Origin: Malassezia furfur
Lineage: Eukaryota
Strand: one strand, 5' to 3'
Assembly: GCA_052055015.1 (NCBI GenBank)
Contig: JBQJIT010000034.1
DNA length: 46,935 nt
The position numbers were made by a program, and so were the translations under genes. The notes below the pieces were generated by a model. It had not been told where the DNA came from, did not search any database, and worked only from the letters and a program-made list of their open reading frames with translations. Numbering within the stretch: position 1 is the stretch's first letter; the number at the start of each line of letters is the position of its first letter. This document shows positions 192 to 46,935 of this stretch, one piece after another.

Positions 192-2405
192 CTAGTCGCC
201 GAACCGGATCGCCCCGCCCGGGAACGCGCCGCCCGACGGCACGGCGCGTGCGCGCCACGCCGCGACATCGGCGCGCAGCGTGTCGAGCAGCGCCGCGAGC
301 CGCGCGTAGAACGCATGGCCCTCGCTCACGTGCTGCGTGAGCGTCGTGTAGGTGGTGTAGGCGTCGCGCACGCGTGCGTACGCCGCATCCTGGGCCTGCA
401 GCGTCGCGTCCAGCGCTGCGTCGTCGTGCACGGCCGCGACGTGCGTGCGAATCTGGCGGAGCAGCGCGGCCTGTGCGTCGCGCAGCGCATCGCACTGGGC
501 CACGTAGGGGGTATACTTGCGCATGCCCGCATCGAGCACGTCGTCCAGCGCGCCGGGGTCGACCGCCTCGACGTCCGCGCCGGCGCGCACCTCGCCGAGG
601 TGCCGCTCGCGCGCCGCCGCCTCGAGGCGCGGGCGCAGCACGTCGGTGTCGCACGCCGAGCGCACGCGCTGCAGCAGCGCGCGGCGCTGTGCCGCGCTGT
701 CTTCGAGGCGCTCCACGTCCGCACGCAGCGTGCGCAGGCGCGGGGCGGCCGCGCGGCGCACGCGCTCCACCTCGTAGCTCGGCGGGAGCACATGGCGCGC
801 GAGCTCGGCACCGCCGCGCTCCATCACCGCGAGCTCGGCGCGCACGGCCTCCCACTGCGCCCGGACCGTGGCGTCGCTTGCGCCCGCCTCGGCGAGCGTG
901 CGTTCGTACTCGCGCCAGAGCGTCTGCAGCGCGTGCTGCTGCGTGACGAGGTCCTCGGCCACGCCGGGCACCGCGCGGAACACGACCGACTCGAGCTCGG
1001 CAAGCACGTCGGCACACTGTGCGGCGACCTGCGCGTTCTCGTCGATCTTGCGGGGCAGCGCCGCGAGCGGTGCACGCTGCAGCGCCGCCGTGTACGTCGC
1101 CCACTCGCGCGGGATGCGCTGCGGCGACTCGATGCGGTTGAGCAGGCCGGGCAGGTGCAGCTCGGCGAGCGCCGCGGAGGCCTCGGTGTCTAGTGCATGC
1201 AGCCGCGCCTCGACGACCGTCTCGCAAAAGTGCCGCTTGCGGTCGCTGTACAGCCGCTCGGCGACATCGATGCCATACGTCATCAGCCCTCGGAACCACA
1301 GCGCATGCTCGTCGACCAGCGCACGCGGCGACACGACGCCCTCGGGCGGCGCGGGCTTGGCCATCTCGGCCGTGCCCAGGTCGGGCAGCGCCGCTTCGTT
1401 CGTGGCCGACTCGAGATAGATGAGCTGGTTGTCGCGCTCAGCGCGCGCCAGGTTCGTCTCGACGATCGACTGCAGGTCACGGAGGTCGTCTACAAGCGCA
1501 TGGGACGGCAGCGCACGCAGCGGCAGCGCCAGCGCCGCGCGCACCTGCGAGGCAGCGAGCGTCAGGCGGCCGAGCTCGTCGCCGTACCGCTTGTGCACGA
1601 GATCGTCGCAGCTCTTGCGGTACTGCGCTGCGGCGGAAAAGTGCAGCTGCTTGCACCGCGTGTGCACTTTATATGCCTGCGGCAGCGGCGACGCGGCCGC
1701 CGCGTTCGCGCTCTGCTCGTACAGGTCGGCGGCACTGCGTGCGAGCTTGGCAATCGTCGTGTCTTTGTACGCGTCCTGCGTCGCCTTTTGCCAGAAACAC
1801 TCTTGCGCCTGCGCAAGCATGAGCGTCTGCAATGCCGTGAGCGACGCGGGCGCCAGCTCGTGGGGCGCATCGGCGCCCTGCTCGGCTGGGGTGAGCAGCG
1901 TCTGCAGCAGCTGCAGGGTTCCGGCGGCATGCTGCGTCAGGGCATCACGTACCTGAAAGTGCGTCGTCGCACGGCGGATACTCTCCTTATCGCTACGCGA
2001 CTCGGACTGGCCCAGCTGCGCGTACTGTGCCGCGATGCACTGTACGATGCACGCGCGCTCCATCGCAAGCGACGGATAGGCTACCAGGCGGCTGCTTGTG
2101 AGTCCCGAGCCCCAGGGAAATCCGAATCCTAGCGGGGTATGCGCAGCATCCTTGGCACCTGCGTTGCTGTCGAGCACACGCAGCAGGAATGCGAGCTGCG
2201 CCGCATACGCCAGAAGTTTTGGTACGCTCGACACGGCGATCGGCAGATGGATGCACGCATCACGCGCCGCACTCCATGCCTCGATGTCTGGCTCGTATAG
2301 TGCGCTGTGGATATCCGGGTATGCGGCGTCAAGGTACGCGATCACGGGGTCGCGCAGCGCGACGTGCTCGGACCGCGGCGCGCCCAGACCCAGCACGTTG
2401 GACAT
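192..2405 (-). CDS. RIM20: pH-response regulator PalA/Rim20 (BRO1 + ALIX V domain)
   Basis: BRO1 motifs (ERACIV, LMLAQAQECFWQKA, AERDNQLIYLE). In-frame 21-nt intron 1932-1952 (GTACGTGATGCCCTGACGCAG); removal restores the BRO1-type HFQ|HAAG. Confidence 0.88.
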   Translation of the reverse strand: MSNVLGLGAPRSEHVALRDPVIAYLDAAYPDIHSALYEPDIEAWSAARDACIHLPIAVSSVPKLLAYAAQLAFLLRVLDSNAGAKDAAHTPLGFGFPWGSGLTSSRLVAYPSLAMERACIVQCIAAQYAQLGQSESRSDKESIRRATTHFQVRDALTQHAAGTLQLLQTLLTPAEQGADAPHELAPASLTALQTLMLAQAQECFWQKATQDAYKDTTIAKLARSAADLYEQSANAAAASPLPQAYKVHTRCKQLHFSAAAQYRKSCDDLVHKRYGDELGRLTLAASQVRAALALPLRALPSHALVDDLRDLQSIVETNLARAERDNQLIYLESATNEAALPDLGTAEMAKPAPPEGVVSPRALVDEHALWFRGLMTYGIDVAERLYSDRKRHFCETVVEARLHALDTEASAALAELHLPGLLNRIESPQRIPREWATYTAALQRAPLAALPRKIDENAQVAAQCADVLAELESVVFRAVPGVAEDLVTQQHALQTLWREYERTLAEAGASDATVRAQWEAVRAELAVMERGGAELARHVLPPSYEVERVRRAAAPRLRTLRADVERLEDSAAQRRALLQRVRSACDTDVLRPRLEAAARERHLGEVRAGADVEAVDPGALDDVLDAGMRKYTPYVAQCDALRDAQAALLRQIRTHVAAVHDDAALDATLQAQDAAYARVRDAYTTYTTLTQHVSEGHAFYARLAALLDTLRADVAAWRARAVPSGGAFPGGAIRFGD

Positions 2406-2460: not shown

Positions 2461-3090
2461 ATGGCGAGTGACGCGCGTGCAGTGGGCGCGGAAGCGGGTG
2501 TGCCGGCGCCGACAAGCGCGCCGGTGCACTCGACGGCAGACAGCAGCGAGGCGGCGCCAACGCAGCAGGAGCTGCAGTTTGCGCGCGCGACCTACATCAT
2601 CCTCGCTATGTGGCCGGCGATGCGCCAGGCCGTGCTCGAGATGTGGGGCGGTCCCGAGTCTGAAGAGAAGCGCGACTTTTTGCTGTCGCACCTGTGTGAC
2701 GAGTACGGTACCGGGAAGGGCAAGCTCCCGGACATGGACGACCTCACCGACCTCCTGGAGAACTACCTGGCCGAGGAGTACGACTGCCAGCTTGAGGACG
2801 ACAGCGCCGCGCTCGTCGCGCTCCACGTGTGCAACACATACAAGGCCGTGTTTGAGGAGCAACACGGGACCGAGTTCCTCAAGCAGCTCGAAGAGGCGTT
2901 CGCCAAGGTGAGCAAGTCGAGCGTCAAGAACCAGACGCAGGAGATCGCTGAAGACGAAGAGGATGCGTCTGACGATGCGCACGAGGTACCTGCACCCACG
3001 ACTTCGGCGCCGCGCACACCTGTGCCGCGGCCCGAGCCCGAGATCGACGAGGATGGCTTCGAGACCGTAGTGAGCCGCCGCCGGCGTTAA
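2461..3090 (+). CDS. TSR2: Pre-rRNA-processing protein Tsr2
   Basis: WPAMRQAV...WGGPESEEKRDFL (WGG domain), LEDDS, and C-terminal EIDEDGFETVVSRRRR. ATG at 2461 within ORF 2098..3090. Confidence 0.9.
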   Translation: MASDARAVGAEAGVPAPTSAPVHSTADSSEAAPTQQELQFARATYIILAMWPAMRQAVLEMWGGPESEEKRDFLLSHLCDEYGTGKGKLPDMDDLTDLLENYLAEEYDCQLEDDSAALVALHVCNTYKAVFEEQHGTEFLKQLEEAFAKVSKSSVKNQTQEIAEDEEDASDDAHEVPAPTTSAPRTPVPRPEPEIDEDGFETVVSRRRR

Positions 3091-3134
3091 TTTTGGTAGC
3101 TTCCTCCACTTGCACCCACGCGCCGCTGCGCGTG

Positions 3135-5904
3135 ATGGACGACAAGGCGGATGCGTCCTCGCTTTTCTTCCACGCGAGTCGCACGTCCGACGCCTCGGGC
3201 GAGCATCCCAGGCGGCTTGCACACCTTTCGGCGTCGTTCCGGCTGCACGATGCCGAGATCGCGTTTTTTAACGCGGTCGTTGGCTCGCTGCCGGCCGCGT
3301 CGGACAGTTTTGGGCATCTGAAGCGCGCGTACGATGCGCAGATGCGCGTGCCCGCTCTGGTGCACCGCATCGCACGCGCACTGGACGTCGGCCCGGACGA
3401 TACGGCGGCCGTCGATGCGCGGCTATGGAATACGCTCCTCGCGCTCGTCCAGGTACGGGGCCATACGTGGGCCGAGCGCTGGGACGCCGTGCGCGTCTCG
3501 CTCGGCCTCGACCCATGGGCCTCAGACGACGACGAAGAATCTTACTCAATGCACGAGCTTACGCACGCGCTGCAAACGCCCGCATCGCCTGCACACACCG
3601 CAGGACCATCGGCATGGACACTGTTCGACGCGCCGTCTGCGTCGCACTCGCCGTGGTCGTCTCCGCGCAGCGTGTCCAGTGACGGAGCACAGGACGCCTC
3701 CGATCACCGCTGGATGCAACGCAGTGCGTCGCCAATGAACCTCAGCGAGCTACGGCGCGCACCACTGCCGACCCCCGCGTCGCTCGCATGGACGCCGCGT
3801 AGTGTGCACGGCGTGTCGAGCCGGTCGCAGGATAGCGACGTGTCTGACGATGAGCTGGATGCGCCGTACAACTGGCGAACCCAACGTACTTTGCGTACCG
3901 CCGATGCATGGGGCGCTGCGCGTCTCCTTGGCCGCATGCTCCGCCGCTGGTATGCGGCGCTCCGAGCACAGCACGAGGCCGCCGTAGATGCTGCGCGCGC
4001 GCACGACCGGTGCATCGTGTCACAGAGCCTGGCTGCATGGCGCACGGCGACGCGGCAATCCCAGCGGCGCAGCACACTCGCTGCGGCGTATGCGGACCGC
4101 GCGCTACTGCGTCGCGCATGGGGCCACTGGGTGCGCCGCTGGGCGGCGCTTCTCGATACGCGGCGCGCCGAGCACCGTGCCGCGCTACGTTCTGCCTTCT
4201 ACGAAGTGGATACCCGGCGCAGCCACGCAATCGTCGCGGTCGCGTGGACGGTACGTCGACGACTCACACAGCTCTGGCGCCAGGCGAGCGATCGACGCCT
4301 CGCGGTGGCCGTTTGTGCTATGCGCACGAAGCATGCGGCGTTTGCAATATGGCGCGCACGGTCCGAGGATGCGCGCACACTGTCTGAGCGGGGCACGGCA
4401 ATTCGCCGCCGCCGTGTACAACGTGTGCTGCGCGACGTATGGGCGCGATGGACTCAGCAGACCAAGCGCCGTCATGCGCTTGCTGTGGCCACAGAGCAGC
4501 ACCATATGTGGCAACAGCACAATGCATGGACCAAATGGCGCACCCATCTCGCGCGCATCCGAGCGCTGGACGTGCGCGCGGATGCATGGGCCGGCGCTGC
4601 TACGCACTTGCACCTGCGCGAGGCGCTGCGCCGCTGGCAGCTGCGTGCACGGGCGGCGTATGCTGTGCGCGCGGCCGATGCACAGATCGTGCAGACCGCA
4701 TGGCAGACGTGGTGGGTTCGATTTACGGAACGCACCGTCGCTTGGCAGGGTACGTCACTGTCTCACACAGACTGGCAGGCGGACGCCGAGGCGCGGTGGG
4801 CACGGCGGCGCACCGAGCATACCTGGGCGCAGTGGATACAGCGTACCGCGTACTGGGAGCGGCAAGCGCAGTATGCGGCGCGTACACATGCCATGCGCAT
4901 GCTTTGGGCCGCCTACACACGCTGGGCCGCACGCGCACACGCTCGTAGGGAGGACGCGCTGCGTGCAGACGGTGCCGCCCGGCTGCACACGCTGCGTGGC
5001 GCATGGCGACAGTGGCAGGCGGCGCACCAGGCGGTACGAGCACGCCGCCTTCGTGTTGCGCTCGACGTGCAGGTGGTGGGCAACGCGTTCCAGGCGTGGC
5101 GCCTGCGTGCTGCTCAGGCACAGCACTGGCGCACGGGCGCAGCCCTGCTCGCGGCACAGACCGCCGCGCGCGTGCAGCGGACGTGTCTCGCGCACTGGCT
5201 GAGTCGCGCGTGTGCGCGGCGCGGCGCGTTCGAAGACGCGGCCGAGCGCGCCGACACGCAGTGTGTCGCACGCGCGCTTGCGCACTGGCGCGCACGCTGC
5301 CGCACCGTGCGCTCACATACCGACATGGCGGATGCTTTGCGTGCCGCGTATGACCAAGGTACGTGGCCGACTCACCAGACTGTGCACGGCATGCATTGCA
5401 CACATGGGTCCGTGCGCACCGACTGGGCACGCTGCAGACCGCGTGGCAGGCGGCGCGTGACACCCGCCGACGCGCCGTGGCGTGGGAGCAGTGGCGTGAT
5501 GCGTTGGCGCACGCCGCGCTCTCGTACGAGGTACGTGTGGTGCTCACGCGCAGGAATACGCAACGCTTGCGGCCCGGCGGCGGTGGATGCTGCGCCGCTG
5601 CTTTGTGCACTGGCTTGCCCGCACCAGTGTGCTGCCTGCCGTGGAGCACCGGCGCAGTACGCTGCAGGCGCACGCGCTGCGCCGGTGGGTCGACAAGCTG
5701 CGCGCGCGGCAGCGCGAGGCGACCGCGCGTGCGTTTGTGCGTGCGACGGTGCTGCGCGATGCGCTCGCGACGTGGCGCGCCAAGTGCGCGTACTTGGCCG
5801 AGCTGCGCGCCGTACAAGGTCTGCACGCACGCGCGCGGCGCACCTCGGACCCACACTTTCGGCGCCGGCTGGCGTTTGTGGCGCCGACGGCGCGTTTCTC
5901 GTAG
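3135..5904 (+). CDS. SFI1: Sfi1-like spindle pole body protein (centrin-binding Trp repeats)
   Basis: Many LxxxF/WxxW[RK] helical repeats. Introns 4251-4271 (21), 4750-4770 (21), 5359-5378 (20), 5531-5553 (23) join ORF frames 3093, 5363 and 5587 into one repeat protein ending at TAG 5902-5904. Confidence 0.75.
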
Positions 5905-5909
5905 CGACT

Positions 5910-6733
5910 CTACTTACGCGAGACATGGTACGAGCTCGCCTGGTTCGTCGGCAGGATCAGCACATCGGCGATGTTGACGTGCGGCTTGCGGCTCGCAGCC
6001 CACACGACCTCCTCGGCAATGTCTTCGGCGGTGAGCGGCTCGATGCCCTCGTATACCTTATCAGCCGCCGACTGATCGCCGCGGAAACGCACGAGGCTAA
6101 ACTCGGTCTCGACCATGCCCGGCTGAATCTCGCTCACGCGGATCGGCGTGTCCACGAGCTCCATGCGCAGCGCGGTGGTGAACGAGTGCAGCGCGGCCTT
6201 CGACGCGCAGTACACCGAGCCGCCCGGGTACGCATTCACACCGGCGATCGAGCCGAGATTGATGATGTGCCCCGCGTTGCGCGCCTTGAACTCGCGCACA
6301 AACTGCTGCGTGATGTGGATCAGGCCGTGCACGTTGGTGTTGAGCATGCGGTCGATCGCGTCCGGCTTGACGTCGCCGACGCGGTCGGTGCCGACGGCAA
6401 GGCCCGCATTGTTCACTGTGTCAGCACGAGCGACCTACCCAGCACATCCACCTCGCGGCCCCAGTCGGGCAGCAGCGTGAGCACCTTGTTCACCTGCTCT
6501 GTGTTGGTCATGTCGAGCGACACGGCCGCGTAGCGCCCGCCCTTGCCCGTCTGGCCCGCTCGGTTCGCTTCTTCGCACGCGCGGCACACTTCGGCGAGCT
6601 TATCGGCGCGGCGCGCGGTGAGCACGACGTTGGCACCCGCACGCGCAAACAGTGTCGCAGTCGCGGCGCCGATACCCGACGACGCGCCGGTCACCAACAC
6701 CACCTTGTCGTGCAGCAGCTTGGTCGTCCACAT
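5910..6733 (-). CDS. NADP-dependent short-chain dehydrogenase (YdfG/YMR226C-like 3-hydroxy acid dehydrogenase)
   Basis: TGASSGIG, NNAG, YCASK, PGMVETEFS motifs. 23-nt intron 6416-6438 joins VDVL|VNNAG. Confidence 0.9.
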
Positions 6734-9094: not shown

Positions 9095-10215
9095 AGCTTG
9101 ACTACCTGTTCGGGCCGATACCCCAGCTCGGCGAGCAGCCCCCGCAGCGGGCCCTGCGACACCATGTCGCGGCCCTTGTCACCTGCCATAGCCCGCACAA
9201 ACCCGTCGGGGCCACACACAAGTACGAGCCGATCGGCGTCTGGCGCACTCCACGTGCGCAGGTCGGCTGCCTCGATGCGACCGAGCGCAAGCGGCAGCAC
9301 GTCGCCGCTGGCCAGGCGCAGCTGGTAGTGCGTCGGCGACGTCGGCCACCACCGCGTGCGGCGCTCCGCGTGCACTTCAGCGGGCACGGGCGGGCCCTCG
9401 AGTGCGGCAACCGTGCCATGGTGCGCCGCAAGACGCTCGACCCAAAGGCCGACACGCACGCTGGGGTGTTCTCGCTGGAACGCTGCGAGCTCGGGCACCA
9501 TCTCGAGCGTGTCGAGCGACTGTGCAGCGTACAGGACGGTGATGCGTGGCACCGGCCCCGCGGCAGCGGCGTAAGCGTTGGATAGGAGCTGCACCGCAGT
9601 GCTTACACCCGTACCCGCGACAAGCTGCGTTAGTGCGGCACGTACCAGGACAATTTCGGTGGGCACACGCGCCGTGCCCAGCTCCCACGTCGGCACAGGA
9701 CCACGGAGCGACACGGGGGATGTCGGGCGCAGACGATGCAGGTACCGCGACATTTCGCCATCTGAGTACCGCTTCACAACGAACGACAACATGTGGGGAT
9801 CAGTGCGCGCCAGCATCTCGAGCGGCGTGTAAGCGCGCTCGACTTGTAGTGACGGCTCTTTGATGTAGTATGCGTAAATGGCCAGACGCCGCGCGACGTC
9901 GTCGTCCGCGGCAGCATTATCCACACCCGTGTCACCGTTGGCACGCACCCGCAGCAGGCGGTGTACGGGCGCCTCGTGTGGATCAAACGCGTCCGTGGCA
10001 TTGCGCGGCAGGCGCACACTTTCTTCCAACGTCAGTTCCGCATACCGCGTCCGCTGCGGCACGGGCGGCGCGTCGTTCCGGCGCAGCCAGTATGTCGCAC
10101 CGGCTCCCGCACACGTCAAAGCCACGAGCGCACCGATGCGCCGCGACGCGCGTACGGGCCGCGCCCGCGGCGCCGCCTGCGTCGCGAGCGCGCGTGCGCC
10201 CAGCGTCCACACCAT
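9091..10215 (-). CDS. CYC2: Mitochondrial cytochrome b5 reductase-like flavoprotein (Cyc2-like)
   Basis: ERAYTP, VKRYSDGEMSRYLH, LRGP, VCGPDGF, QGPLRGLL motifs; N-terminal presequence plus TM segment. In-frame 21-nt intron 9625-9645 removal restores IVL|LVAGTG. Confidence 0.75.
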   Translation of the reverse strand: MVWTLGARALATQAAPRARPVRASRRIGALVALTCAGAGATYWLRRNDAPPVPQRTRYAELTLEESVRLPRNATDAFDPHEAPVHRLLRVRANGDTGVDNAAADDDVARRLAIYAYYIKEPSLQVERAYTPLEMLARTDPHMLSFVVKRYSDGEMSRYLHRLRPTSPVSLRGPVPTWELGTARVPTEIVLVRAALTQLVAGTGVSTAVQLLSNAYAAAAGPVPRITVLYAAQSLDTLEMVPELAAFQREHPSVRVGLWVERLAAHHGTVAALEGPPVPAEVHAERRTRWWPTSPTHYQLRLASGDVLPLALGRIEAADLRTWSAPDADRLVLVCGPDGFVRAMAGDKGRDMVSQGPLRGLLAELGYRPEQVVKL

Positions 10216-10283: not shown

Positions 10284-12167
10284 ATGCACGCCGGAGTGGT
10301 CCCGGCGAGCGAGATCCCGACGGCGGAGGCGCGCAGCCTTGCGCGCACGTTGCAGGTGCTCCTGTATCTGCCGTACGACGTCGCAACGACGCTCGGTGAG
10401 CAGTGCAAAGAAGCCATCGCCGATCTTCCAGAAGACAGTCAGCCGCTGACCTACGACGGCCTCGTGGACGTCGCCCGGTTCTGCGTCGAGGAGGAGCCGG
10501 GATGGTCCGAGCAGCAACAGACCCAGCTTCTCTCTGGATTCCCACACGTCAAAGGTGACGCGCGCCTCGCCAACCTGTATGCCCAGTTTGAGCGGCAATT
10601 CCCAGGCCTGCGGTACGTCGCTGCGACACGCACCAGTGCGCAGGTTACCGACGAGCTCGAGAGCATCCTGCACCGCACGGCTTCTTCCCACGTCCATGAT
10701 GCAGGGTCTTCTGCGTGGATATCGGAGCTCGAGCGCAACATGGACGCGCTCTGGGAAGTGTCGGTGGACCGTGCTACGGCTCTCGAAGAAGGTACATTGA
10801 GCCTGGCCGATGTACCGCAGGAGCCCACCGCAGCTGAGAAGGATGTGCAGGATTCCATTACGGTGGTGCCTACTGCCTCGGAGACGCCCGCACAGGCGCC
10901 TGTTACGGCCGCCCCCCCAACGGCCGAGCCCGCTGCGCCAACGAAAGAGATTCCTACCGAACAACCCTCTGCTGTGCCGGCAACATCTGTGCCAGCCGCT
11001 GCTGCCCCAGCCATGCCTACAGACCCCGCCTCTACCACGGCCGACGTCTCTAAGCCCACGCCGGCACCGACCGACACCCAGAAAACGGCCAGTGTACCGG
11101 CTTCGGCGCCGACCGACGCAGCGGCGCCGCCTGCCGACGACGAGACGCAGCCTTTCCTGTCGTTCCCCTCGTTCCGCGCACTGGCCCTGGCCTCGCCGGT
11201 GTTGCAGAAATTCTTTGAGCACGACTTGGTACACTCGATCCACTTGGAGCCCGTGCAGCGGTCGAGTACGGGCGGAGCATTTGCATGGCATGCGGCACCT
11301 GTCGCCCCGCGCGGAACGCCCAAGGCAGTCGCGGGGAATACGGGCAAGTCGTCCAACGGCACCGTGTCGCTTGCGTCGACGCTCATCCACGGCAACGCCG
11401 CCCCGTTGGATGCGGATACCCCCGCGAGCTACTCCCGGGACGTTACGACCGGTACACGCGGCAAGGTCGTAGGGTTCCTGGGCGGTCTGTTGGGCGAAGA
11501 GGGCAAGACCCGTATGGATGCACTGGCCGATCAAGTGGCTCTGCGGCTGCAGACACACACGGTCAAGGGTCCGCTGCCTAGCTTCGCGCCCCACACACCT
11601 ACCGAGCCGGAAAAGCCCAAGAGCATGTGGGGCAATGCGTTCATGCGCGGCGCCTCGGCAGCAGCCGGTGCAGTGACAGGCGAAGCAGGCGTACGTCCCA
11701 GCCTCGGCGGACGGCTTGTGGGCGCATTGCGTCGGCAGCCATCCAAGACCGAGCACGAATCGGGCGCAGCGGCTCCCGCCGAGGCGGAGCAAAAGGCATC
11801 CCAGGAGGACGACGCTATGGCCGACAAGGGCCCCGAGGCGGCCGTGGAGAGCCTGCGTGTTGCTAACGAGGCGCTCACACAGGAGCGCGACACGTTTGTG
11901 ATCGACGAGGTGCAGTCTGCCGACCCGCAAGGAGATGCAGACGAAGATGAACACGACGTGATGAACGATGCTGAGGACATGGATGTGCTCGGCGAGCCGG
12001 AACCGGCGAAGCCGGATCGCTCTGGAACCGAGTCGCCCATGGGACAGTTGGAAGGGCGCGAAGCGAAGCGCGCACAAGGTACGTACACTTGGTGTCATGA
12101 GTGCTATATACTAACACGATGTGTCTCCGCACTGCCTATAGAACTACGTCATGCTGCGGCCCAATGA
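10284..12167 (+). CDS. Uncharacterised protein: degenerate OHCU-decarboxylase-like N-terminus, Pro/Ala/Thr linker, Gyp2-C-terminal-like motif
   Basis: Long ORF with good codon bias; FERQFPGLRYV...WISELER...DRA resembles fungal OHCU decarboxylases. Likely in-frame 63-nt intron 12079-12141 (GTACGT...ATACTAAC...TAG). Confidence 0.6.
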   Translation: MHAGVVPASEIPTAEARSLARTLQVLLYLPYDVATTLGEQCKEAIADLPEDSQPLTYDGLVDVARFCVEEEPGWSEQQQTQLLSGFPHVKGDARLANLYAQFERQFPGLRYVAATRTSAQVTDELESILHRTASSHVHDAGSSAWISELERNMDALWEVSVDRATALEEGTLSLADVPQEPTAAEKDVQDSITVVPTASETPAQAPVTAAPPTAEPAAPTKEIPTEQPSAVPATSVPAAAAPAMPTDPASTTADVSKPTPAPTDTQKTASVPASAPTDAAAPPADDETQPFLSFPSFRALALASPVLQKFFEHDLVHSIHLEPVQRSSTGGAFAWHAAPVAPRGTPKAVAGNTGKSSNGTVSLASTLIHGNAAPLDADTPASYSRDVTTGTRGKVVGFLGGLLGEEGKTRMDALADQVALRLQTHTVKGPLPSFAPHTPTEPEKPKSMWGNAFMRGASAAAGAVTGEAGVRPSLGGRLVGALRRQPSKTEHESGAAAPAEAEQKASQEDDAMADKGPEAAVESLRVANEALTQERDTFVIDEVQSADPQGDADEDEHDVMNDAEDMDVLGEPEPAKPDRSGTESPMGQLEGREAKRAQGTYTWCHECYILTRCVSALPIELRHAAAQ

Positions 12168-12392: not shown

Positions 12393-13052
12393 TTAGATTT
12401 TCAAGTAGCCCTTTTCCTGCAGGTACCGAACGATCTGAGCGACGCTGTCCTCGACCGACGACTTGTCGGCATCGATGTGGATCTCAGGGTTGGAAGGCGC
12501 CTCGTAGGGAGCCGAGATACCCGTGAACTCTGATGGTCAGCACATATGACGTACCCTTAATCTCGCCGGCCTTGGCCTTCTTGTAAAGACCCTTGGGGTC
12601 ACGCTTCTCGCACTCTTCGATGCTGGCATCCACAAACACTTCAATGAAGGGAAGCGGGGGATTGTGCTTCGCGTGCAGCTCGCGCGCAAAGTCACGGTCA
12701 GCCTTGTACGGCGAAATGAACGAGGTGATCGTCAGCGTCGTCGACGAGGCGAACAGGAGCGACACCTGGAATGAGTCAAGAAACACACCTCAGAAATACG
12801 ACGAATGTTCTCCTCGCGGTCCTTGGGCGAGAAGCCGAGGTCCTTGTTCAGACCAAAGCGAATGTTGTCACCATCCAGGCGGTAGGCCGACTTCTTCAGG
12901 TGCAGCAGGTGCTGCTCAAGCGCCGTAGCGATCGTCGACTTACCCGAAGCAGACAGACCCGTGAGCCAGATCGTAGCGCCCTGCTGCTTCAGGAGGTCGC
13001 AACGCTCCTCGTACGTGACAGTGCCGGGGTGGAAAGTGATGTTCGTCGCCAT
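12393..13052 (-). CDS. MET14: Adenylyl-sulfate (APS) kinase
   Basis: [15 protein letters not shown]-loop, [18 protein letters not shown]. Introns 12766-12788 (23) and 12530-12554 (25) give [17 protein letters not shown] at 12393-12395. Confidence 0.95.
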
Positions 13053-13088: not shown

Positions 13089-14309
13089 TCAGTTCTTCTT
13101 CTTCTTCTTGACGCGCGTGCTCAAGTCATTGACAGGCTGGTTCGGCTGCACCTTGGTCGTACTCTCGCCCAGGGCGGTCTGTGCAGCATTCAGGAACGCC
13201 TCCCGGATGGTCGCTTCGAGCTCGGGGTTCGACAACTTGCCATCCTCCTTGAGCGCCGCCGGGTTGGACTTCATTTCGTCGAGCTGTGTGAGTGTTAGTA
13301 GGCACGTACCTTTAGTTCCACATCCTTGAGCACCTCTTTCACATCGCGGATCTCGCGCTGACGCTGGTCACTGTCCATGGCGGCCAGATTGTCCCGCTCT
13401 GACACGAGCTTTCCCTCCAGCGCGGGGACTTCTTCCTTCTCCAGCTCCACAAGGCGTCGCTGAAGCACATGCAGTGCCTGCTCAATATGGGAAATAGCTT
13501 CGCCTCGCCGTTCATTGTTAGGGTGGAACTCGAGCGCCAGACCCAACCGCAGATGGGCATCTGAAAGACGGCGGGAAAAGGGAACGAGTAGAGGCGCGAG
13601 AACGCGCAAAGACGACGCATAGTCTTCGGACGCTTGCTCAAAGTTTTCTGTGTAAACCATGCACACATACCAGACTCGAGACCCACGTCGCCCAGATCAT
13701 TGTAGACCTCACCCAGCTCAATTACCAAGTCACGCTCGTCCAACTTGTCACCGGTCAACGTAACCAGCTGTACATCATGCTTCGTTCGTGATGCCGCATC
13801 TTTCGAGGATGCGGGTTGTGAAGCCGAGGTGCCAAGAATCCGCTCGAAGATTACGCGCGACAGGTCCAAAACGGTGAAAGCAACAGCAAGATCGTCCTCT
13901 TCTTCCTCTTCCTCTTCCTGTGCCTGATCGGCGTCATCAGTTGCTTTGCGCTTCCCCGTTGCTTTGGAGGGTGCATCGTCGTTGGCCCCAGAATCGTCCT
14001 TTTCTGCGGGAGGTAGTGGATCGTTCACGGACGGCGCCTCAACAGCACCGCCAGTTCCCAGGGCACCACCCACCTTGATAAAGTGCTCAAGCAATGCGCG
14101 CCCATACAGGTGCAGAATGGGCGCGAGTTCCGGCGCGTCTTCATCATATGCATCACGTCTGGGTCAGAAGTATGCACCTACAGCTCCTCCAGTGCAGATG
14201 CCAGCAGATCCGCAGCACCGTCGTATTTCTTCAAAGCAAAGCACCGGTTGGCTTCGTCGAGCTGGACCTTGACCTGGTCTGCAGCACTGTCTTTGCTTGG
14301 TTTCGACAT
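13089..14309 (-). CDS. NASP/Sim3/Hif1-family histone chaperone (SHNi-TPR)
   Basis: YGRALLE, acidic tract then DDLAVAFTVLDLSR, LGDVGLE|SENFEQA, C-terminal VNDLSTRVKKKKK. Introns 14159-14181 (23), 13648-13670 (23), 13284-13309 (26). Confidence 0.85.
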
Positions 14310-18213: not shown

Positions 18214-19042
18214 TTACGCGTCAAGCATGCCGGATTTGTAGGTCATGTAGGTGAACCTGCTGTGAGCGTTCGCGCGACCTACTCCTGTAACCCAATACGC
18301 GCGTCCTTAGGCCGCCCTTGAGCGGGGTCAGACCGGAAGTATGTGCTCGCCTCCTCGAGCATTTCAGCGAGCTGCCGGTGAGCATGACACGTACCTCGTT
18401 CGTTGTAGCACGCTCGCCCAGCGACTGTGCAGCATACCGTAGCTCTTCCAAGCCTATACGCCGTGTCTCGAGCTGCCTGTCGTCCACCTCAGTTGGGACG
18501 TGCTTATCCTTGTCGTACGTCGCTAGTGCCGACGACGGGACAAGGGGGATGCGTTCCAACAGCAGGCGGTACAAGAAACGCGCCTTTTCGTGCAGGTCTT
18601 TGCGCTTCGGCATGCGGTTTCGTGAACGACTCGACTCCGCCTCATCGGACCCAGAGACAGAGTCGTCGTCCGCGGTGGGGTCGTATGCATCGCTAGCATC
18701 CGAATCTCGCTCCTCTTGCTCCCCCAGCACAATTTCGAGCGCCTCAATGAAATCATCACGCCGAATAGTAGGTCCCTCCTTTGAAGGTTCGGTAGACTGC
18801 CTCAGCAAAGATTCGACCTCGTCCTGCGTCATCGCATCCAGATGGAACGGCGCTAGGGCATTTGGCAACTGGTGTAGGAAAAGGGTTGGGGTGTGCGTAG
18901 GTATGACCGCCTCTTCTGGAATAAATCCGCCAGCGTCTGGAAGGAATCCACCTGGCGCTTCATTCTCCGGCCCATCGCTTTTTGTTACGCCACAGGCGCG
19001 GTCGTAGGCGCGCCCAATGCGCGCACGTAGCGCAATGCTCAT
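18214..19042 (-). CDS. EF-hand-like protein, possibly Rad33-like
   Basis: IGLEELRYAAQSLGE...E|LAEMLEEA...IGLQE|FTYM resembles a degenerate calmodulin/centrin lobe; GGF repeats near the N-terminus. Introns 18372-18394 (23) and 18257-18282 (26); TAA at 18214-18216. Start chosen at ATG 19042. Confidence 0.55.
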
Positions 19043-19429: not shown

Positions 19430-21451
19430 CTATGGACGACGTCCCTTGGCCTTGCGGGACGCGTTGCTGGGCTTGGTCGGCGGGTCCGGCACATACGCTG
19501 CGCCTCCATGCAACGACTCTTCGGCCGGAAGCACCTGATCCATCTCTTGTACCTTGTCTCGTGCAGACACGTAGAACATGACGTCGCGGAGCTCCTCACT
19601 CAGGTCGGCCACACGTGTTTGTAACGCCTTCTGCTCCTCTTGCAGCTTCTCAACGTGTTTGTAGAGCCCGTCCGAGACGCTCTTTTCCTCATCACGCTCC
19701 TTCTTGAGTGCGCGTGCGGATTCGAGTGCGCGCCGCAGCTGCGTCTCGTAGCGCGTGGCCTGTGCATGTGCATTGACCAGTTCGTTCTGCAGTTCGGCAC
19801 ACCGTGCTTCGCCCTGCTGGTACTTGGCTTGGAGTGATGCATAATCGCTGCGGATCTGCTCGGTCTCCTCGCGAGGCGCCCTTTCGGAGCGCGCGACGGC
19901 AAGCAGGCCCTCGTAGTAGATGCGCTGCGAGTCCAGTTGCGACATGATCATGCTGGAGTACTCCAAGCCCAGCGCATGCATCTTTTCCTCGAGCAGGTGC
20001 ATGTCGTTCGGATGAGAGGACGCCGAGGCATCCGCACTCGTAGACATGTTGGGCAAGGCAGATCGTGCCTGTACAGTTCCAGGGTAGCGCGCGTTCCACA
20101 CCTGTTCAGGCGTTGCAGCGGCTACGCTGCTGGCGCTTGGTAGCTCAACCAGTTTGCCGTCCGACTTGCTCTGAATCAAGCGATGGACGTAGCCATCCCC
20201 AGCGTAGTCCCATACACGCTGGGTCTCGAGCTCAAGACTGTACAGATGACCTGTCTCGGCAAAATGCTCACGCGCATGGCCTTGCTTGTACCGACCACAC
20301 CCCACATGCGCACAGATCAGGCATACCCACAAGTCGGTCGAGCTACCACACTGCTCGCAGTTGGTTGCGCGTGAAGCAGTCTCGCTCGAGGACGATGCGT
20401 GGTTCTCGTCGAGTGCTGGTGTCTGTGTGTAGCGACACACCGGGCAGCGGCTGTCAGTCCAGCGCTGCAGGCAATTGCAGTGGAAGGTGTGCTGGCAGAT
20501 ACCCGTGATCAGGCCAGACACGGTAGCATCAAGCCGGTCAAGACACACAGGACAGGTCGGAAGCTCATAGGCGGCGGTACGTAGTGGAGACGACGCCTGG
20601 TATGGGAGCAGCGCGTGCAAGGACGCATCCTTCTCGACATCGGCAGGCGAAATTACTGGCCAAGGCTCTGAATGACTCAAGAGGGGCTGCGAGTGGGGCA
20701 GCGACGGGCTCGGCGCCGCCGTGACACCCGTGATGTATACCAGCTTGCATGTTGCCGATGGCTGCGTCAGTGGAAGACGTACGTCGAGCGCTTGGAACGG
20801 TCGGCCATTATACATCTTGTAAAACTCCTCCGCATCGACGGTGTCGCGGAACTTGAGAAGAACGAGGTTGTTTTCGAGGTCGACATGACTGCATTAGTTG
20901 GAGACGCACCGAACAATTCGCATGTGCTGGATCGCTTCCAGGGCAGGCTCGACAAAGTCCAGTAGTGAAGATACAGTGATGGAAGACGGGACCGATACCA
21001 TGCCTAGGATCGTCCCGATAGGGTCCTCGTCTGTATCTTCGGGCGGTTCGGCAGGTCTCCCACTCACGGACTCGTCATCAAAGTCGTCGCCGAGCAGGCG
21101 GAAGAGATGCACGATACCAAATGCGATACGCACGTCATGCTGCACCTCGGAGTCACTCCATTCGTCGCGTGCTGGTTCGACCTCAAAGGTGTCGACCTCT
21201 TGAAATCGACCGTATGTCTCGTTGCCCAAGTTCTCCATGGGGTGTCGGGGCGCACGCCGGCGCACACGAACAAAATGGACTTCGATCGGCCCGAATCGCT
21301 GGTCGAGATCGGCGGGGTGCTCGGATGGGGGTGCCCCGGGTGTTGCAAGTGTCGTCTGTGGGCTCGCAAAGAGCTTGGAGGGGAACCGATATGTGCCTTG
21401 GTCTCCAACAAACTCACAGATGTGCAGGTGGTACGTCGGCCAACGAGCCAT
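19430..21451 (-). CDS. ETP1: BRAP2/Etp1 RING + UBP zinc-finger E3 ligase
   Basis: VLLKFR...FY..YNGRPF (BRAP2), ELPTCPVCLDRLD RING-H2, WVCLICAHVGCGRY zf-UBP, coiled coil. Introns 20889-20909 (21, contains stop) and 20762-20782 (21). Confidence 0.9.
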
Positions 21452-21524: not shown

Positions 21525-26066
<4,542 letters not shown>

Positions 26067-29200: not shown

Positions 29201-29666
29201 TCGATGCAGATCGTATTCGCCACATTTTCGACCGTTCCCTCTATGTGATGCGTGCCTCGTCCATGCTGTGGCATTTGGCGATCGGGTTCGAGATGCATCT
29301 CCTCGCCAATCCAACGGGACAGCGGCGGCGCGTAACGAACCAGACGTTGCAGCGTGCCAAGGCGCTGATTTACCAAGCCATTCGGCACTGTCCTTTTGAT
29401 AAAGGTACGTCGAGTTGACTCACCCAGCGTTCTACCTGCAAGCATTTTCGCCCCGCTTGGAAGCGGTGTTTGACGCCCAGGAGCTGTACGCACTGGCCAC
29501 TATGATGGAGGAGAAACAGCTACGCATCTATACGGACTTGGATGAACCCATGCGTGCAGATACCCTACAAGAGCACGACGCTGTCCCTGACGAAGCCGAG
29601 GCCAAGGACTGGATCGCAACGTTCGTCGACGACATTGCGGCAGCCACCGTACGGGGCTCCTCGTAG
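26260..29666 (+). CDS. NRDE2: NRDE2/Nrl1-like spliceosome-associated HAT/TPR protein
   Basis: N-terminal PRFASF, IDRFGD, GYQERAYGTLQAL, WWDAEHARVGD, DPFSYVLFDD, LWYAYAQLE, CPFDK|AFYL, MMEEKQLRI. Intron 29405-29427 (23). Confidence 0.85.
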
Positions 29667-41835: not shown

Positions 41836-42800
41836 ATGACCCGCTACACGAAACTGGATGGCCGTCGTTCCATCCCCTCTGGGCATGATGTTCCATCTAC
41901 AGACGAGCCTAATGACACACACGCACCTAATGACACACACGCACCTGCTGAGCCTCAAAACACAACTTCCGAAGAGAGTCAGGACCCGAAGCGGCTGCTC
42001 AAGCGTGCCAAGCTTCTGCGCCTGAAAGCCAAAAAGACCAACTCGGACGAGACACGCGCCAAGCACTTGCAGAACGCCAAGGCGCTTGAGCAGCAGGCAA
42101 ACAAGCTGAATGGCCTACGTGGAAGTCTGGGCAAGCGCAAGAAGGACGAGGATGCACCGAGGGGCAACCAGCGCCCCCGGCTGGGTACGTGACTTTCACT
42201 AACCTAGACGCCGATCAAAAATCCGAGTTCCGACGGCAGATGCGTGCTCAGGAGCGCACAAGTAACATGCGATGCTTTGTGTGCCGTGGAACGGGCCACT
42301 CTGCCAAGAATTGCCCTGAGAATGTTGGCACGGGGAGCTCGTCGCTGACCGATGTCTCCTCGTCCAAGTTGGGCAAGGACACGGTCGGCATTTGCTTCCG
42401 GTGCGGCAGTACCGAGCATACGCTGGCTAAGTGCCGGAAACCTACGCCGAAGGATGGAGACGAGCTGCCGTTCGCTACGTGTTACATCTGTACGCAGAAA
42501 GGCCACCTGGCATCCAAGTGTCCCCAGAACCAGGGTCACGGCGTGTACCCGGACGGTGGCAGCTGTAAGGTGTGCCAGTCTGTGGAGCATCTAGCGAAAG
42601 ACTGTCCGTTGGATCCGCGGCGTACCTCGGCGGCGCACTCGGTCGAGGCCGGCGGTGTCGGCATGGTGTCCACCGATGACATCCCGGTCGGTGCGGACGA
42701 TGACGAATTCCACCTGCTTGCGCGGAAGCGCGCGCAGACGCAGCCCAAGTCTGGGCCGGCGCCGTCCCGCAAGCCTGCGAAAAAGGTTGTCTCGTTTTAG
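41836..42800 (+). CDS. CCHC zinc-knuckle protein (ZCCHC9-like)
   Basis: Four CX2CX4HX4C knuckles, FATCYIC..KGHLASKC..N..GVYPDGGSC, terminal KKVVSF. Intron 42185-42207 (23). Confidence 0.85.
41908..41946 (+). repeat. 18-bp in-frame tandem duplication (PNDTHA x2)
   Basis: CCTAATGACACACACGCA repeated twice, followed by CCT. Confidence 0.9.
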
Positions 42801-45860: not shown

Positions 45861-46935
45861 CTATGGCGGCGGAGGTACGAGTACGGTGGCAAGCCCCGCG
45901 GCGATGGCATCGAGCCAGGCACCGAGATCGTTGACCGTCTGCATGAGCTCGGTGTGCAGCTCCTGACGGTTCATCAGGTTTGCGAGGTCCAGGGGGCGCA
46001 GCGCGGGGCCGTCGAATAGCGCCGCAGGAGGGGTATGGAACACATCCTTGTCCAGCGCAGGCAAGGCGGGCACGTGGCGGCGCTGCGGCGCGCGCGGGGC
46101 ATCGCCCTCGTCGCTTGGCAGCGGCGGGTCCGACGTCTTGCGCAGGTGCGCAGGGCTCATCAGCGGGTTTGCTAGTATCGTAGGATCCGAGCCGCCGTGG
46201 TGTTTTCGTAGATGTGCATTTTCCTCCGACGTGCCCAGCACCGACAGCGATGCCGACGCGGTGAGTGCCGTGGGCGACGGCGAGGTGCCGCCGCCCGCCT
46301 TTTTCGGCGAGGTGCCGTCCACGTCAGGCTGCAGACGCAGAAGCGGCTGCATCGGCACGACGCGCGTGCGGCTCGTCAGCGAGTGCGTCGTCTGGTGCGC
46401 ATACGCACGCGATCGCAGGTCTGCTGCGCTGCCGCTGCGGCTGCGTGTGCGGCTGATGGCGCCCTGCGGTCGGAAGCCTGCAAACGGCTCCTCGAGGAAC
46501 GACGGGATATCGTGCCGCGAGGATGGGTCTCCGCGTCGCTCCGCGTCCGCCGCTGCGGCGCGACTCGCGTCCAGGCCGAGCGACGACGAGGAAGCGGCCA
46601 TCCGCAGCGCCGGTGGCTGCACCGCGCGACGGCTCGGCACGAAGCGGCCGACGCGCCGCAGCGCGGGCGAGCTGCGCGGCGAGTCGCCCTCGCTCTTTCC
46701 GCCGTCGACCTCGGGCGAGGTCGGCTGCGAGAGGCTCGGCGCAAACGGCTCGCTCGGCTCAAACGGCGAGGTGCTGGGTGTCGTGTGCGTCTCGGCGTGC
46801 TCCACCTCGTCGATCGCCGCGAGCGACGGGCTGCGCGACACGACCGAGGCCGCTGGGGTGTCGCTCGGCTCCGTGGGCGGTTCGGACGGGGGTGCAGAGG
46901 GTGCGGGCGGCGCAGGCGGCGCAGACGGCGCGGGC
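45861..46935 (-). CDS. C-terminal part of a gene running off the right edge; possibly the tail of a Kic1/Nak1-type STE20 kinase
   Basis: Open Ser/Pro-rich frame ending in the amphipathic RPLDL...ELMQTVNDLGAWLDAIAAGL motif. Catalytic domain is not in the window, so the family call is from memory only. Confidence 0.5.
   Translation of the reverse strand, partial: PAPSAPPAPPAPSAPPSEPPTEPSDTPAASVVSRSPSLAAIDEVEHAETHTTPSTSPFEPSEPFAPSLSQPTSPEVDGGKSEGDSPRSSPALRRVGRFVPSRRAVQPPALRMAASSSSLGLDASRAAAADAERRGDPSSRHDIPSFLEEPFAGFRPQGAISRTRSRSGSAADLRSRAYAHQTTHSLTSRTRVVPMQPLLRLQPDVDGTSPKKAGGGTSPSPTALTASASLSVLGTSEENAHLRKHHGGSDPTILANPLMSPAHLRKTSDPPLPSDEGDAPRAPQRRHVPALPALDKDVFHTPPAALFDGPALRPLDLANLMNRQELHTELMQTVNDLGAWLDAIAAGLATVLVPPPP

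Follow-up and report, generated by a model that had tools for sequence, protein, structure and literature searches.

A 20-nucleotide (nt) element at positions 5359-5378 of a stretch of Malassezia furfur nuclear DNA, lying within a gene of the Sfi1 family, is probably a genuine U2-dependent intron of the smallest class used by this organism, with the A of its CTNAC motif serving as branch point and with the placement of that A at +16, counted from the first intron base, setting a hard lower limit on the lariat loop. The stretch, hereafter the window, is 46,935 bases long with a GC content of 0.54-0.72, and was analysed together with proteins of relatives, metagenome contigs and published papers. 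That 5359-5378 is spliced as proposed appears very likely from its sequence and from the comparisons laid out below. The argument starts from three adjoining parts of the Sfi1-family gene:

5359..5378, plus strand: 20-nt GT-AG intron of the Sfi1-family gene, phase 1, predicted from its sequence, the reading frames, codon scores and the match to protein P0004.
5379..5530, plus strand: 152-nt middle exon with Sfi1-like W-containing repeats, predicted from the P0004 match and codon score; skipped in protein P0002.
5531..5553, plus strand: 23-nt intron GTACGTGTGGTGCTCACGCGCAG, with A at +16 and a tail of 7 (from the A to the intron end); frames are linked across it, P0004 joins ..LSYE/EYATL.. (the slash marks the junction) and P0002 has it as coding.

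The 20-nt element reads GTACGTGGCCGACTCACCAG and consists of the donor GTACGT, a 6-nt spacer, CTCAC with its A at +16, and CAG, such that the branch-like A lies 4 nt before the last G. It therefore carries the GT..AG ends with extended donor and the branch motif of U2-type introns, and its excision, like that of six other introns in the window, restores a frame that is colinear with orthologs. U12-type introns have the donor /RTATCCTT and the branch sequence TCCTTAAC; 5359-5378 has GTACGT and CTCAC, and a GTATCC donor was found in no intron of the window. The Sfi1 frame 0 ends at 5358, the W-rich repeats resume in frame 2 (5379-5530), and they continue in frame 1 from 5554 to a stop at about 5901. 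This frame order of 0, 2, 1 needs two successive elements of length 3n+2, here 20 nt followed by the 23 nt of 5531-5553. An earlier, sequence-only reading of this DNA had described a 20-nt sequence ending in CTCAC-CAG that supplies the frame change required to continue the Sfi1 repeats; the element is exactly as it described, and the change from frame 0 to frame 2 is the one needed. Its gene names fared unevenly. SFI1 stands, as the Sfi1 Pfam profile PF08457 scores 31.3 bits for exon 1 (cut-off 22) and 20.8 bits, just under the cut-off, for the last exon. NASP, its name for a second gene, received only a sub-threshold SHNi-TPR match (18.9 bits, cut-off 21), and that gene is called NASP-like below.

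Homolog searches returned three related Sfi1 proteins only (P0002, P0003 and P0004). The C-terminal half of the long plus-strand open reading frame (ORF) at 3135-5357 is 100% identical to P0002, a hypothetical protein of M. furfur CBS14141. P0004, the annotated M. brasiliensis ortholog, bears the UniRef name Sfi1 spindle body domain-containing protein and reads ..AAYDQ-D-RVRHALHTWVRAHRLGVLQTAW..ALSYE-EYATLAARRRW.., which is the product of excising both small elements. Its junctions are DQ/D and SYE/EY, with the sequence ..AAYDQ-D-RVRHALHTW.. spanning the 20-nt junction, and in the frame given by the 20-nt splice the middle exon translates to a sequence that agrees with P0004 in 42 of 48 residues. 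Codon scores, trained on the Pfam-supported ORFs of the window, point in the same direction: the last 90 nt of the middle exon before 5531 score 7 in the exon frame versus -1 and -47 elsewhere, and the best-scoring frame of this exon can be reached only through a 3n+2 deletion. P0003, an uninterrupted ORF call from a close relative, runs through both elements in a single frame. Its two elements must therefore sum to a multiple of 3, compared with 43 nt in M. furfur, and such a change in length is as expected of non-coding sequence. Use of the next AG after 5378 as acceptor was considered and rejected, since by inspection of the sequence the resulting 79-nt intron leads to a stop within a few codons.

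The NCBI gene model interprets this region differently, with a single 172-nt intron at 5359-5530, the middle exon as intronic sequence and 5531-5553 as coding. P0002 (865 amino acids) accordingly reads ..AAYDQGTCGAHAQEYATL.. across the region, and 5359-5530 does have GT..AG ends and keeps the reading frame. However, the 3' end of the 172-nt intron is ..CTCTCGTACGAG (..GTACGAG), a GAG acceptor with CTNAY absent within 8 nt, whereas among the 40 introns recognised in the window (defined below) the terminal trinucleotide is CAG in 39 and TAG in one, never GAG, and lengths reach 45 nt at most. The segment that P0002 skips also bears the W-repeat pattern in addition to its match to P0004, and the same model retains a 21-nt element that is exactly missing from P0004. 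It is thus very improbable that the NCBI model is right, or that both forms exist by alternative splicing. The retained element is the first of two in the upstream part of the gene:

4750..4770, plus strand: in-frame 21-nt intron of the Sfi1 gene, A at +16, tail 5, with an exact 7-residue gap in P0004.
4251..4271, plus strand: in-frame 21-nt candidate intron of the Sfi1 gene, A at +16, tail 5, proposed from its motif.

Both are GTACGT..CTCAC-ACAG elements that are each translated as 7 residues in P0002, and excising 4251-4271 and 4750-4770 restores the AWxxW repeat motif, as AWT/LW (AWTLW) and AWQ/DW, respectively. The NCBI model of the M. furfur Sfi1 gene appears to be wrong at three or four places. 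It should be noted that a single frame at 2973-6533 (plus strand) stays open for 1186 codons, over the whole Sfi1 gene, both introns and beyond, as a by-product of the GC-rich composition, which explains why an ORF caller like that used for P0003 reads through the introns. A further gap in P0004, of 12 residues (YTRWAARAHARR) found in both M. furfur and P0003 (alignment A2 columns 594-605), may reflect either a genuine deletion or one more small intron that was annotated as such.

The 20-nt element belongs to a larger population of short elements that behave as introns. For 37 of 44 candidates in the window, the best-scoring frames on the two sides are linked in the way that splicing requires, and of the 24 candidates with a length not divisible by three, 19 are so linked, where one third would be expected by chance. 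Likewise, Pfam domain matches break off in one frame and resume in another at 6416-6438 (adh_short, profile positions 1-81 and 82-186), 12766-12788 (APS kinase), 22616-22637 (Pkinase) and 20889-20909 (BRAP2). Contiguity in related DNA is the strongest of these tests of intron status, and it was applied using Malassezia-like loci L001-L007, which come from metagenome contigs scanned with the IKS1-like kinase. At the sites of introns 22115, 22219, 22616, 22914, 20762 and 20889, these loci carry uninterrupted coding sequence, with only the split codon between the flanks (for intron 20889, on the minus strand, the comparison is with L001 only). Since the flanks are contiguous in the relatives, the six elements are insertions in otherwise colinear coding sequence. 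These introns, together with two that have other kinds of evidence, are as follows:

22115..22135, plus strand: 21-nt intron, IKS1-like kinase gene; A at +16; in-frame stop; flanks contiguous in L001, L002, L004, L005 and L007.
22219..22239, plus strand: 21-nt intron, IKS1-like kinase gene; A at +16; flanks separated by TGG (W) alone in 5 of 5 related loci.
22616..22637, plus strand: 22-nt intron, IKS1-like kinase gene; A at +17; flanks contiguous in 5 of 5 loci; Pkinase match split.
22914..22934, plus strand: 21-nt intron, IKS1-like kinase gene; A at +16; flanks contiguous in 4 of 5 loci, the fifth being without a downstream match.
20762..20782, minus strand: 21-nt intron, BRAP2-like gene; A at +16; flanks contiguous in related loci.
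1932..1952, minus strand: in-frame 21-nt intron, BRO1/ALIX-like gene; GTACGTGATGCCCTGACGCAG, A at +16; proposed from its motif.
18372..18394, minus strand: 23-nt intron; A at +16, tail 7; proposed from its motif and linked frames.

Protein comparisons add to this picture. For instance, orthologs read YKHAWVEM across the site of intron 22219-22239, and AYVHHSP, the read-through of 22914-22934, is present only in M. furfur and missing in 8 of 8 aligned orthologs. The human ALIX alignment has a 6-residue gap beside VRDALTQ, the translation of 1932-1952. Ortholog support was found for half of the introns with A at +16, namely 8 of 16 (5359, 5531, 4750, 22115, 22219, 22914, 20762 and 20889), with 1932 as a weak ninth. 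The in-frame 21-nt introns are mostly free of stops (10 of 13 are without one), so that their retention or mis-annotation adds 7 residues and leaves the frame unbroken. Introns of 3n length are reportedly avoided in ciliates, unlike the 21-nt class of M. furfur. At the site of 22219-22239, P0006 from Malassezia sp. CBS 17886 has an extra ASLT, and AG in place of the AW of the others (alignment A1 columns 301-320); from the protein alone, the extra residues look like the 3' end of a tiny intron that was annotated as coding. A PDB comparison of the cytochrome-b5-reductase-like ORF that holds intron 9625-9645 gave no match.

The position of the predicted branch A was surveyed with the pattern GT[AG]NGT-Nk-CTNA[CT]-Nt-AG on both strands, for all k of 0-15 and t of 0-7 and with a tail free of any earlier AG, and the chance level was taken from 60 first-order Markov simulations of the window. 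Among the 36 motif-defined introns, the A lies at +16 in 16, at +17 in 6, at +18 in 7, at +19 in 2, at +20 in 2 and at +21 in 3, with none at +10 to +15 and none at +22 to +25; the expectation by chance is 0.25-0.58 per position. The 21-nt pattern GTRNGT-N6-CTNAY-NCAG has 13 matches versus 0.03 expected from dinucleotide shuffles. These counts agree with the sequence-only reading, which had proposed a floor of 16 nt from donor to branch A, had placed the A at +16 both in the 21-nt introns and in the 23-nt introns 5531-5553 and 18372-18394, and had noted that there is no polypyrimidine tract, for which a tail of 4-5 nt indeed leaves no room. The examples that it cited (1932-1952, 5531-5553, 18372-18394 and 13284-13309) are all present as described. 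At +16 the tail is 4 in one intron, 5 in 13 and 7 in 2; variation at this position is therefore confined to the tail, with the loop held constant. The 20-nt intron owes its missing base to a tail of 4 instead of 5, its donor-to-branch distance being unchanged, and on this single intron rests the conclusion that the tail can fall to 4 while the loop does not fall to 15.

A set of 40 introns was compiled by adding 4 with weaker donors or TTNAC branch motifs, recognised by frame analysis, and by removing 4 doubtful cases from the 44 candidates. The rejected elements are 6057-6092 and 10425-10454, both in frame, scoring well when read through and with odd tails, and 46372-46408 and 18260-18282, with unlinked frames and odd tails; 18260-18282 is still counted within the 36-intron scan. 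Introns 19116, 40424, 43379, 42868 and 33322, whose frames are unlinked, were kept among the 40 on motif alone. Lengths in this set are 20 nt (1 intron), 21 (13), 22 (5), 23 (10), 24 (3), 25 (1), 26 (3), 27 (1) and 29, 41 and 45 (1 each), with a median of 23 and a mode of 21. The A of the last motif is at +16 in 16 introns, +17 in 8, +18 in 7, +19 in 2, +20 in 1, +21 in 3 and +22, +33 and +37 in 1 each, and its distance to the intron end is 5 in 29, 4 in 1, 6 in 2, 7 in 6 and 8 in 2. The donor is GTACGT, with C at +4, in 28 introns, and a [CT]TNA[CT] motif lies 4-8 nt before the end in all 40, in part because introns were selected for it. The base preceding the branch A is C in 19 introns (CTCAC in 14, CTCAT in 5) and G in 14 (CTGAC), and no base preference was found at positions 7-12 of the 21-nt class. 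Two scans of the window for frame-supported GT..AG introns shorter than 20 nt returned only weak matches with poor donors, an antisense match and overlaps of real introns. In this window the +16 floor is a well-supported local pattern, far beyond chance, with a putative value of 16 that might instead be 15.

The intron that bears most directly on the exact value is the following:

13284..13309, minus strand: 26-nt intron, NASP-like gene; GTACGTGCCTACTAACACTCACACAG; two branch motifs; linked frames and an in-frame stop.

Its first motif, the TACTAAC of CTACTAAC, has its A at +15, and its second, CTCAC, has its A at +21 with a tail of 5. At the orthologous site L002 and L004 each have a 28-nt intron that contains a single CTACTAAY with A at +21. 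L004 reads GTATGT-CAATCGTT-CTACTAAC-GACGAG, and M. furfur reads GTACGT-GC-CTACTAAC-ACTCACACAG, such that the 8-nt branch motif is conserved, the spacer is reduced from 8 to 2 nt in M. furfur, the A is moved from +21 to +15, and a new downstream CTCAC-ACAG provides the standard ending. The comparison shows CTACTAAC to be the presumptive ancestral branch motif of this intron. The sequence-only reading had taken the first motif to be too close to the donor; spacer shrinkage and the new downstream CTCAC fit that proposal, but the +15 site could still be used. Equally with the too-close interpretation, CTACTAAC at +15 is the best candidate for a functional branch at that position. In introns 12766-12788 (minus strand), 29405-29427 (plus strand) and 42185-42207 (plus strand), TTGAC or TTCAC adjoins or overlaps the standard motif (e.g., TTGACTCAC), with A at +13 or +14. 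The downstream motif has a standard tail of 5-6 in 4 of 4 double-motif introns.

Four introns could be compared by length at shared positions in M. furfur and its Malassezia-like relatives:

DPM2 intron: 24 nt in M. furfur; 49, 34, 34 and 25 nt in relatives.
CDC48 intron: 27 nt in M. furfur; 50, 44, 43 and 29 nt in relatives.
Intron of the gene at 14159: 23 nt in M. furfur; 34, 27 and 27 nt in relatives.
NASP-like intron: 26 nt in M. furfur; 28 and 28 nt in relatives.

The M. furfur intron is the shorter one every time (23-27 versus 25-50 nt), and the A of the relatives lies at +19 to +39. A motif scan of L001-L007 placed the branch A at +17 to +25, with no real intron below +17. Two matches with A at +11 in L002/L003 are not introns, one of them being the initial 19 nt of a 34-nt DPM2 intron and the other lying where stops occur in all six frames. 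Judged by these predicted branch sites, the sampled relatives are not at the +16 wall and M. furfur is. Among ten comparable M. furfur introns, six (20762-20909 and 22115-22934) are missing from the relatives, all of them 21-22 nt long, and the four shared ones are 23-27 nt. Put by class, 6 of 6 tested minimal introns are missing from the relatives versus 0 of 4 longer ones, with the six located in two genes only. This distribution suggests that the minimal 21-22 nt class may be lineage-specific, either by gain in M. furfur or by loss elsewhere. A more far-reaching scenario is possible, although we hold it only tentatively: a hard 16-nt minimum loop with yeast-like signals at all three sites, toward which the whole intron population has been driven as toward a wall, with branch sites that slid inside it being replaced downstream, as in the NASP-like intron, and with a young or lineage-specific minimal class.

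In the preferred reading, most M. furfur introns would be compact units of 20-23 nt composed of GTACGT, about 6 unconstrained bases, CTNAC and (N)CAG, in which the A of CTNAC is the likely branch point and which may be recognised whole, as one unit. Positions 1-6 would pair with U1 and then with U6, and about 5 positions before the A would pair with U2, such that a linker of about 4 nt remains. The floor of 16 would then be set by the docking of the donor/U6 and U2/branch pairings in one active site, and the acceptor would be the first AG 4-5 nt past the branch, chosen without a polypyrimidine-tract step. Several observations weigh against this interpretation. The frames are unlinked in 7 of the 44 candidates, the codon-score margin just downstream of 5378 is small (-5 versus -8), the NCBI annotation of the Sfi1 gene disagrees with the 20-nt intron, and M. 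brasiliensis P0004 is itself a gene prediction. The motif definition CTNAY in part presupposes the answer, and only 47 kb of the genome was sampled, so that rarer, shorter loops are possible elsewhere. In addition, a further branch-like motif upstream of the standard one, its A at +13 to +15, is present in 4 of the 40 introns (12766, 29405, 42185 and 13284), and if the conserved CTACTAAC at +15 is used, the floor is 15 or lower.

These last points lead to an alternative that accepts the 20-nt intron but attributes the +16 floor to a small sample or to the motif definition, and not to a mechanical limit, with loops of 13-15 nt being used elsewhere and perhaps in four introns here. The real constraint could then be total length (about 20 nt or more), or a deletion bias that was halted where the consensus motifs would overlap. 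Such an alternative draws on the sample of just 36-40 introns, on the upstream motifs at +13 to +15 in 4 of 40, including the conserved CTACTAAC, and on the nearly fixed tail of 5 (29 of 40), which makes loop length and total length close to one variable; Stentor, moreover, has its branch A at +10 (PMC9505925), so that 16 is not universal. Nevertheless, the step is sharp, from 0 to 16. Tails of 7-8 occur in 8 of the 40 introns and never with the last-motif A at +15 or closer, the sole 20-nt intron keeps +16 and trims its tail, and the standard tails of the downstream motifs in the double-motif introns are also at odds with it. On balance we consider a floor without mechanical meaning rather unlikely, and the hard limit remains our preferred reading.

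It has also been suggested, by the sequence-only reading, that so short a loop is enabled by a remodelled spliceosome, in which U2AF/Mud2, SF3b/SF3a, Slu7 or Prp18 is lost or truncated, or U1, U2 or U6 is altered. The tail of 4-5 nt is too short for a polypyrimidine tract, and a C before the branch A, found in 19 of 40 introns, does not pair with the canonical U2 branch-recognition sequence GUAGUA; both features would be in line with such a change, if indirectly. An Rfam search of the window and five related loci detected no snRNA and no other family. Stentor can be cited on either side. According to PMC9505925, it is without some regulators, and parts of its branching factors differ; at loops of 10 nt its set of snRNAs is nonetheless complete, the U6 ACAGAGA box and the U2 branch-recognition sequence are retained, and its Prp8 is 74% identical. 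The occurrence of loops this small with a conserved core implies that a small loop alone does not indicate a remodelled spliceosome. The same anchored tail is described for Yarrowia and Trichomonas in PMC2483917. A remodelled spliceosome would thus not be required by the loop size, and we judge it unlikely as the explanation.

Should the +16 wall apply to the whole genome, it would put a number on the smallest lariat loop that can be closed with full consensus pairing at donor and branch, and a spacing about one third of that needed in human extracts would constrain how U1 and U2 can be placed jointly on one intron early in assembly. M. furfur, being transformable and near the solved yeast and human spliceosomes, would then be a test bed for the smallest canonical substrate; CRISPR and Agrobacterium transformation have reportedly been published for this species (10.1101/638429). 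Public RNA-seq of M. furfur CBS14141 is cited in PMC9040865. There are also consequences for annotation. The in-frame 21-nt introns, being mostly stop-free, are silently missed by gene predictors, and M. furfur proteomes probably carry many 7-residue insertions and skipped exons. If the hard-minimum reading is true, in-frame 21-nt introns are a systematic source of error in the protein annotations of M. furfur, a skin commensal and occasional pathogen.

Within the genus, M. sympodialis has 5350 introns with a mean of 30 bp, 99% of them supported by RNA-seq (PMC5389616, Table 2), and the annotation of M. restricta used a minimum intron length of 20 and then 15 (PMC6473144). In the literature searched, which did not extend to subscription journals or to the image of supplementary figure S8 of PMC5389616, no account of branch placement, of a modal length of 21 nt or of a lower wall was found for Malassezia. 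Tiny introns are already known from other Malassezia, as is the failure of default minimum-intron settings in this genus.

The 5' splice site to branch distance of budding yeast was reportedly addressed by Kohrer and Domdey in 1988, and the minimum spacing of budding yeast and human is the same quantity under steric constraint as the one considered here. In human extracts about 50 nt is needed in vitro between the 5' splice site and the branch site, according to PMC6692369, which bears out, for human, the premise of the sequence-only reading that known spliceosomes need a much longer linker. The donor-to-branch spacing of M. furfur is about one third of this in-vitro minimum, and its early complexes with U1 and U2 could therefore not have the geometry implied by the human experiments.

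A likeness in size exists with Stentor coeruleus, whose introns of 15-16 nt place the branch A at +10 or +11, followed by a tail of 5 nt. All of its snRNAs are conserved, as are most core proteins, Prp8 highly so (PMC9505925). Ultra-short GT-AG introns, a fixed geometry and a 5-nt tail, the latter being the M. furfur mode, are common to both. The Stentor introns have loops of 10-11 nt, are AU-rich, conserve only GUA at the donor and have a weak branch consensus, whereas those of M. furfur have a full hexamer donor, CTNAC, a GC-rich composition and a 16-nt loop, and the lineages are unrelated. At 20-21 nt, GC-rich, with A at +16 and a strong consensus, the introns of the window fall outside the Stentor type of tiny intron, although they work in a similar way.

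At the 3' end the parallel is instead with the anchored, tract-less branch-to-AG arrangement of Yarrowia lipolytica, Trichomonas vaginalis and Giardia lamblia (Irimia and Roy 2008, PMC2483917), with which M. furfur has in common a short, fixed gap between branch and AG and the absence of a tract. The window introns fit this class, being tract-less with a tail of 5 in 29 of 40, and fusion of branch motif and AG is in these terms a known convergent pattern. Counted as in PMC2483917, the gap between CTNAC and AG has a mode of 2 nt in M. furfur, as in Y. lipolytica, and is 1 nt in the 20-nt intron. The median intron is, by the same source, 204 nt in Y. lipolytica and 104 nt in T. vaginalis, with ordinary or long distances from donor to branch, and it is thus the 5' half of the M. 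furfur intron that is unusual.

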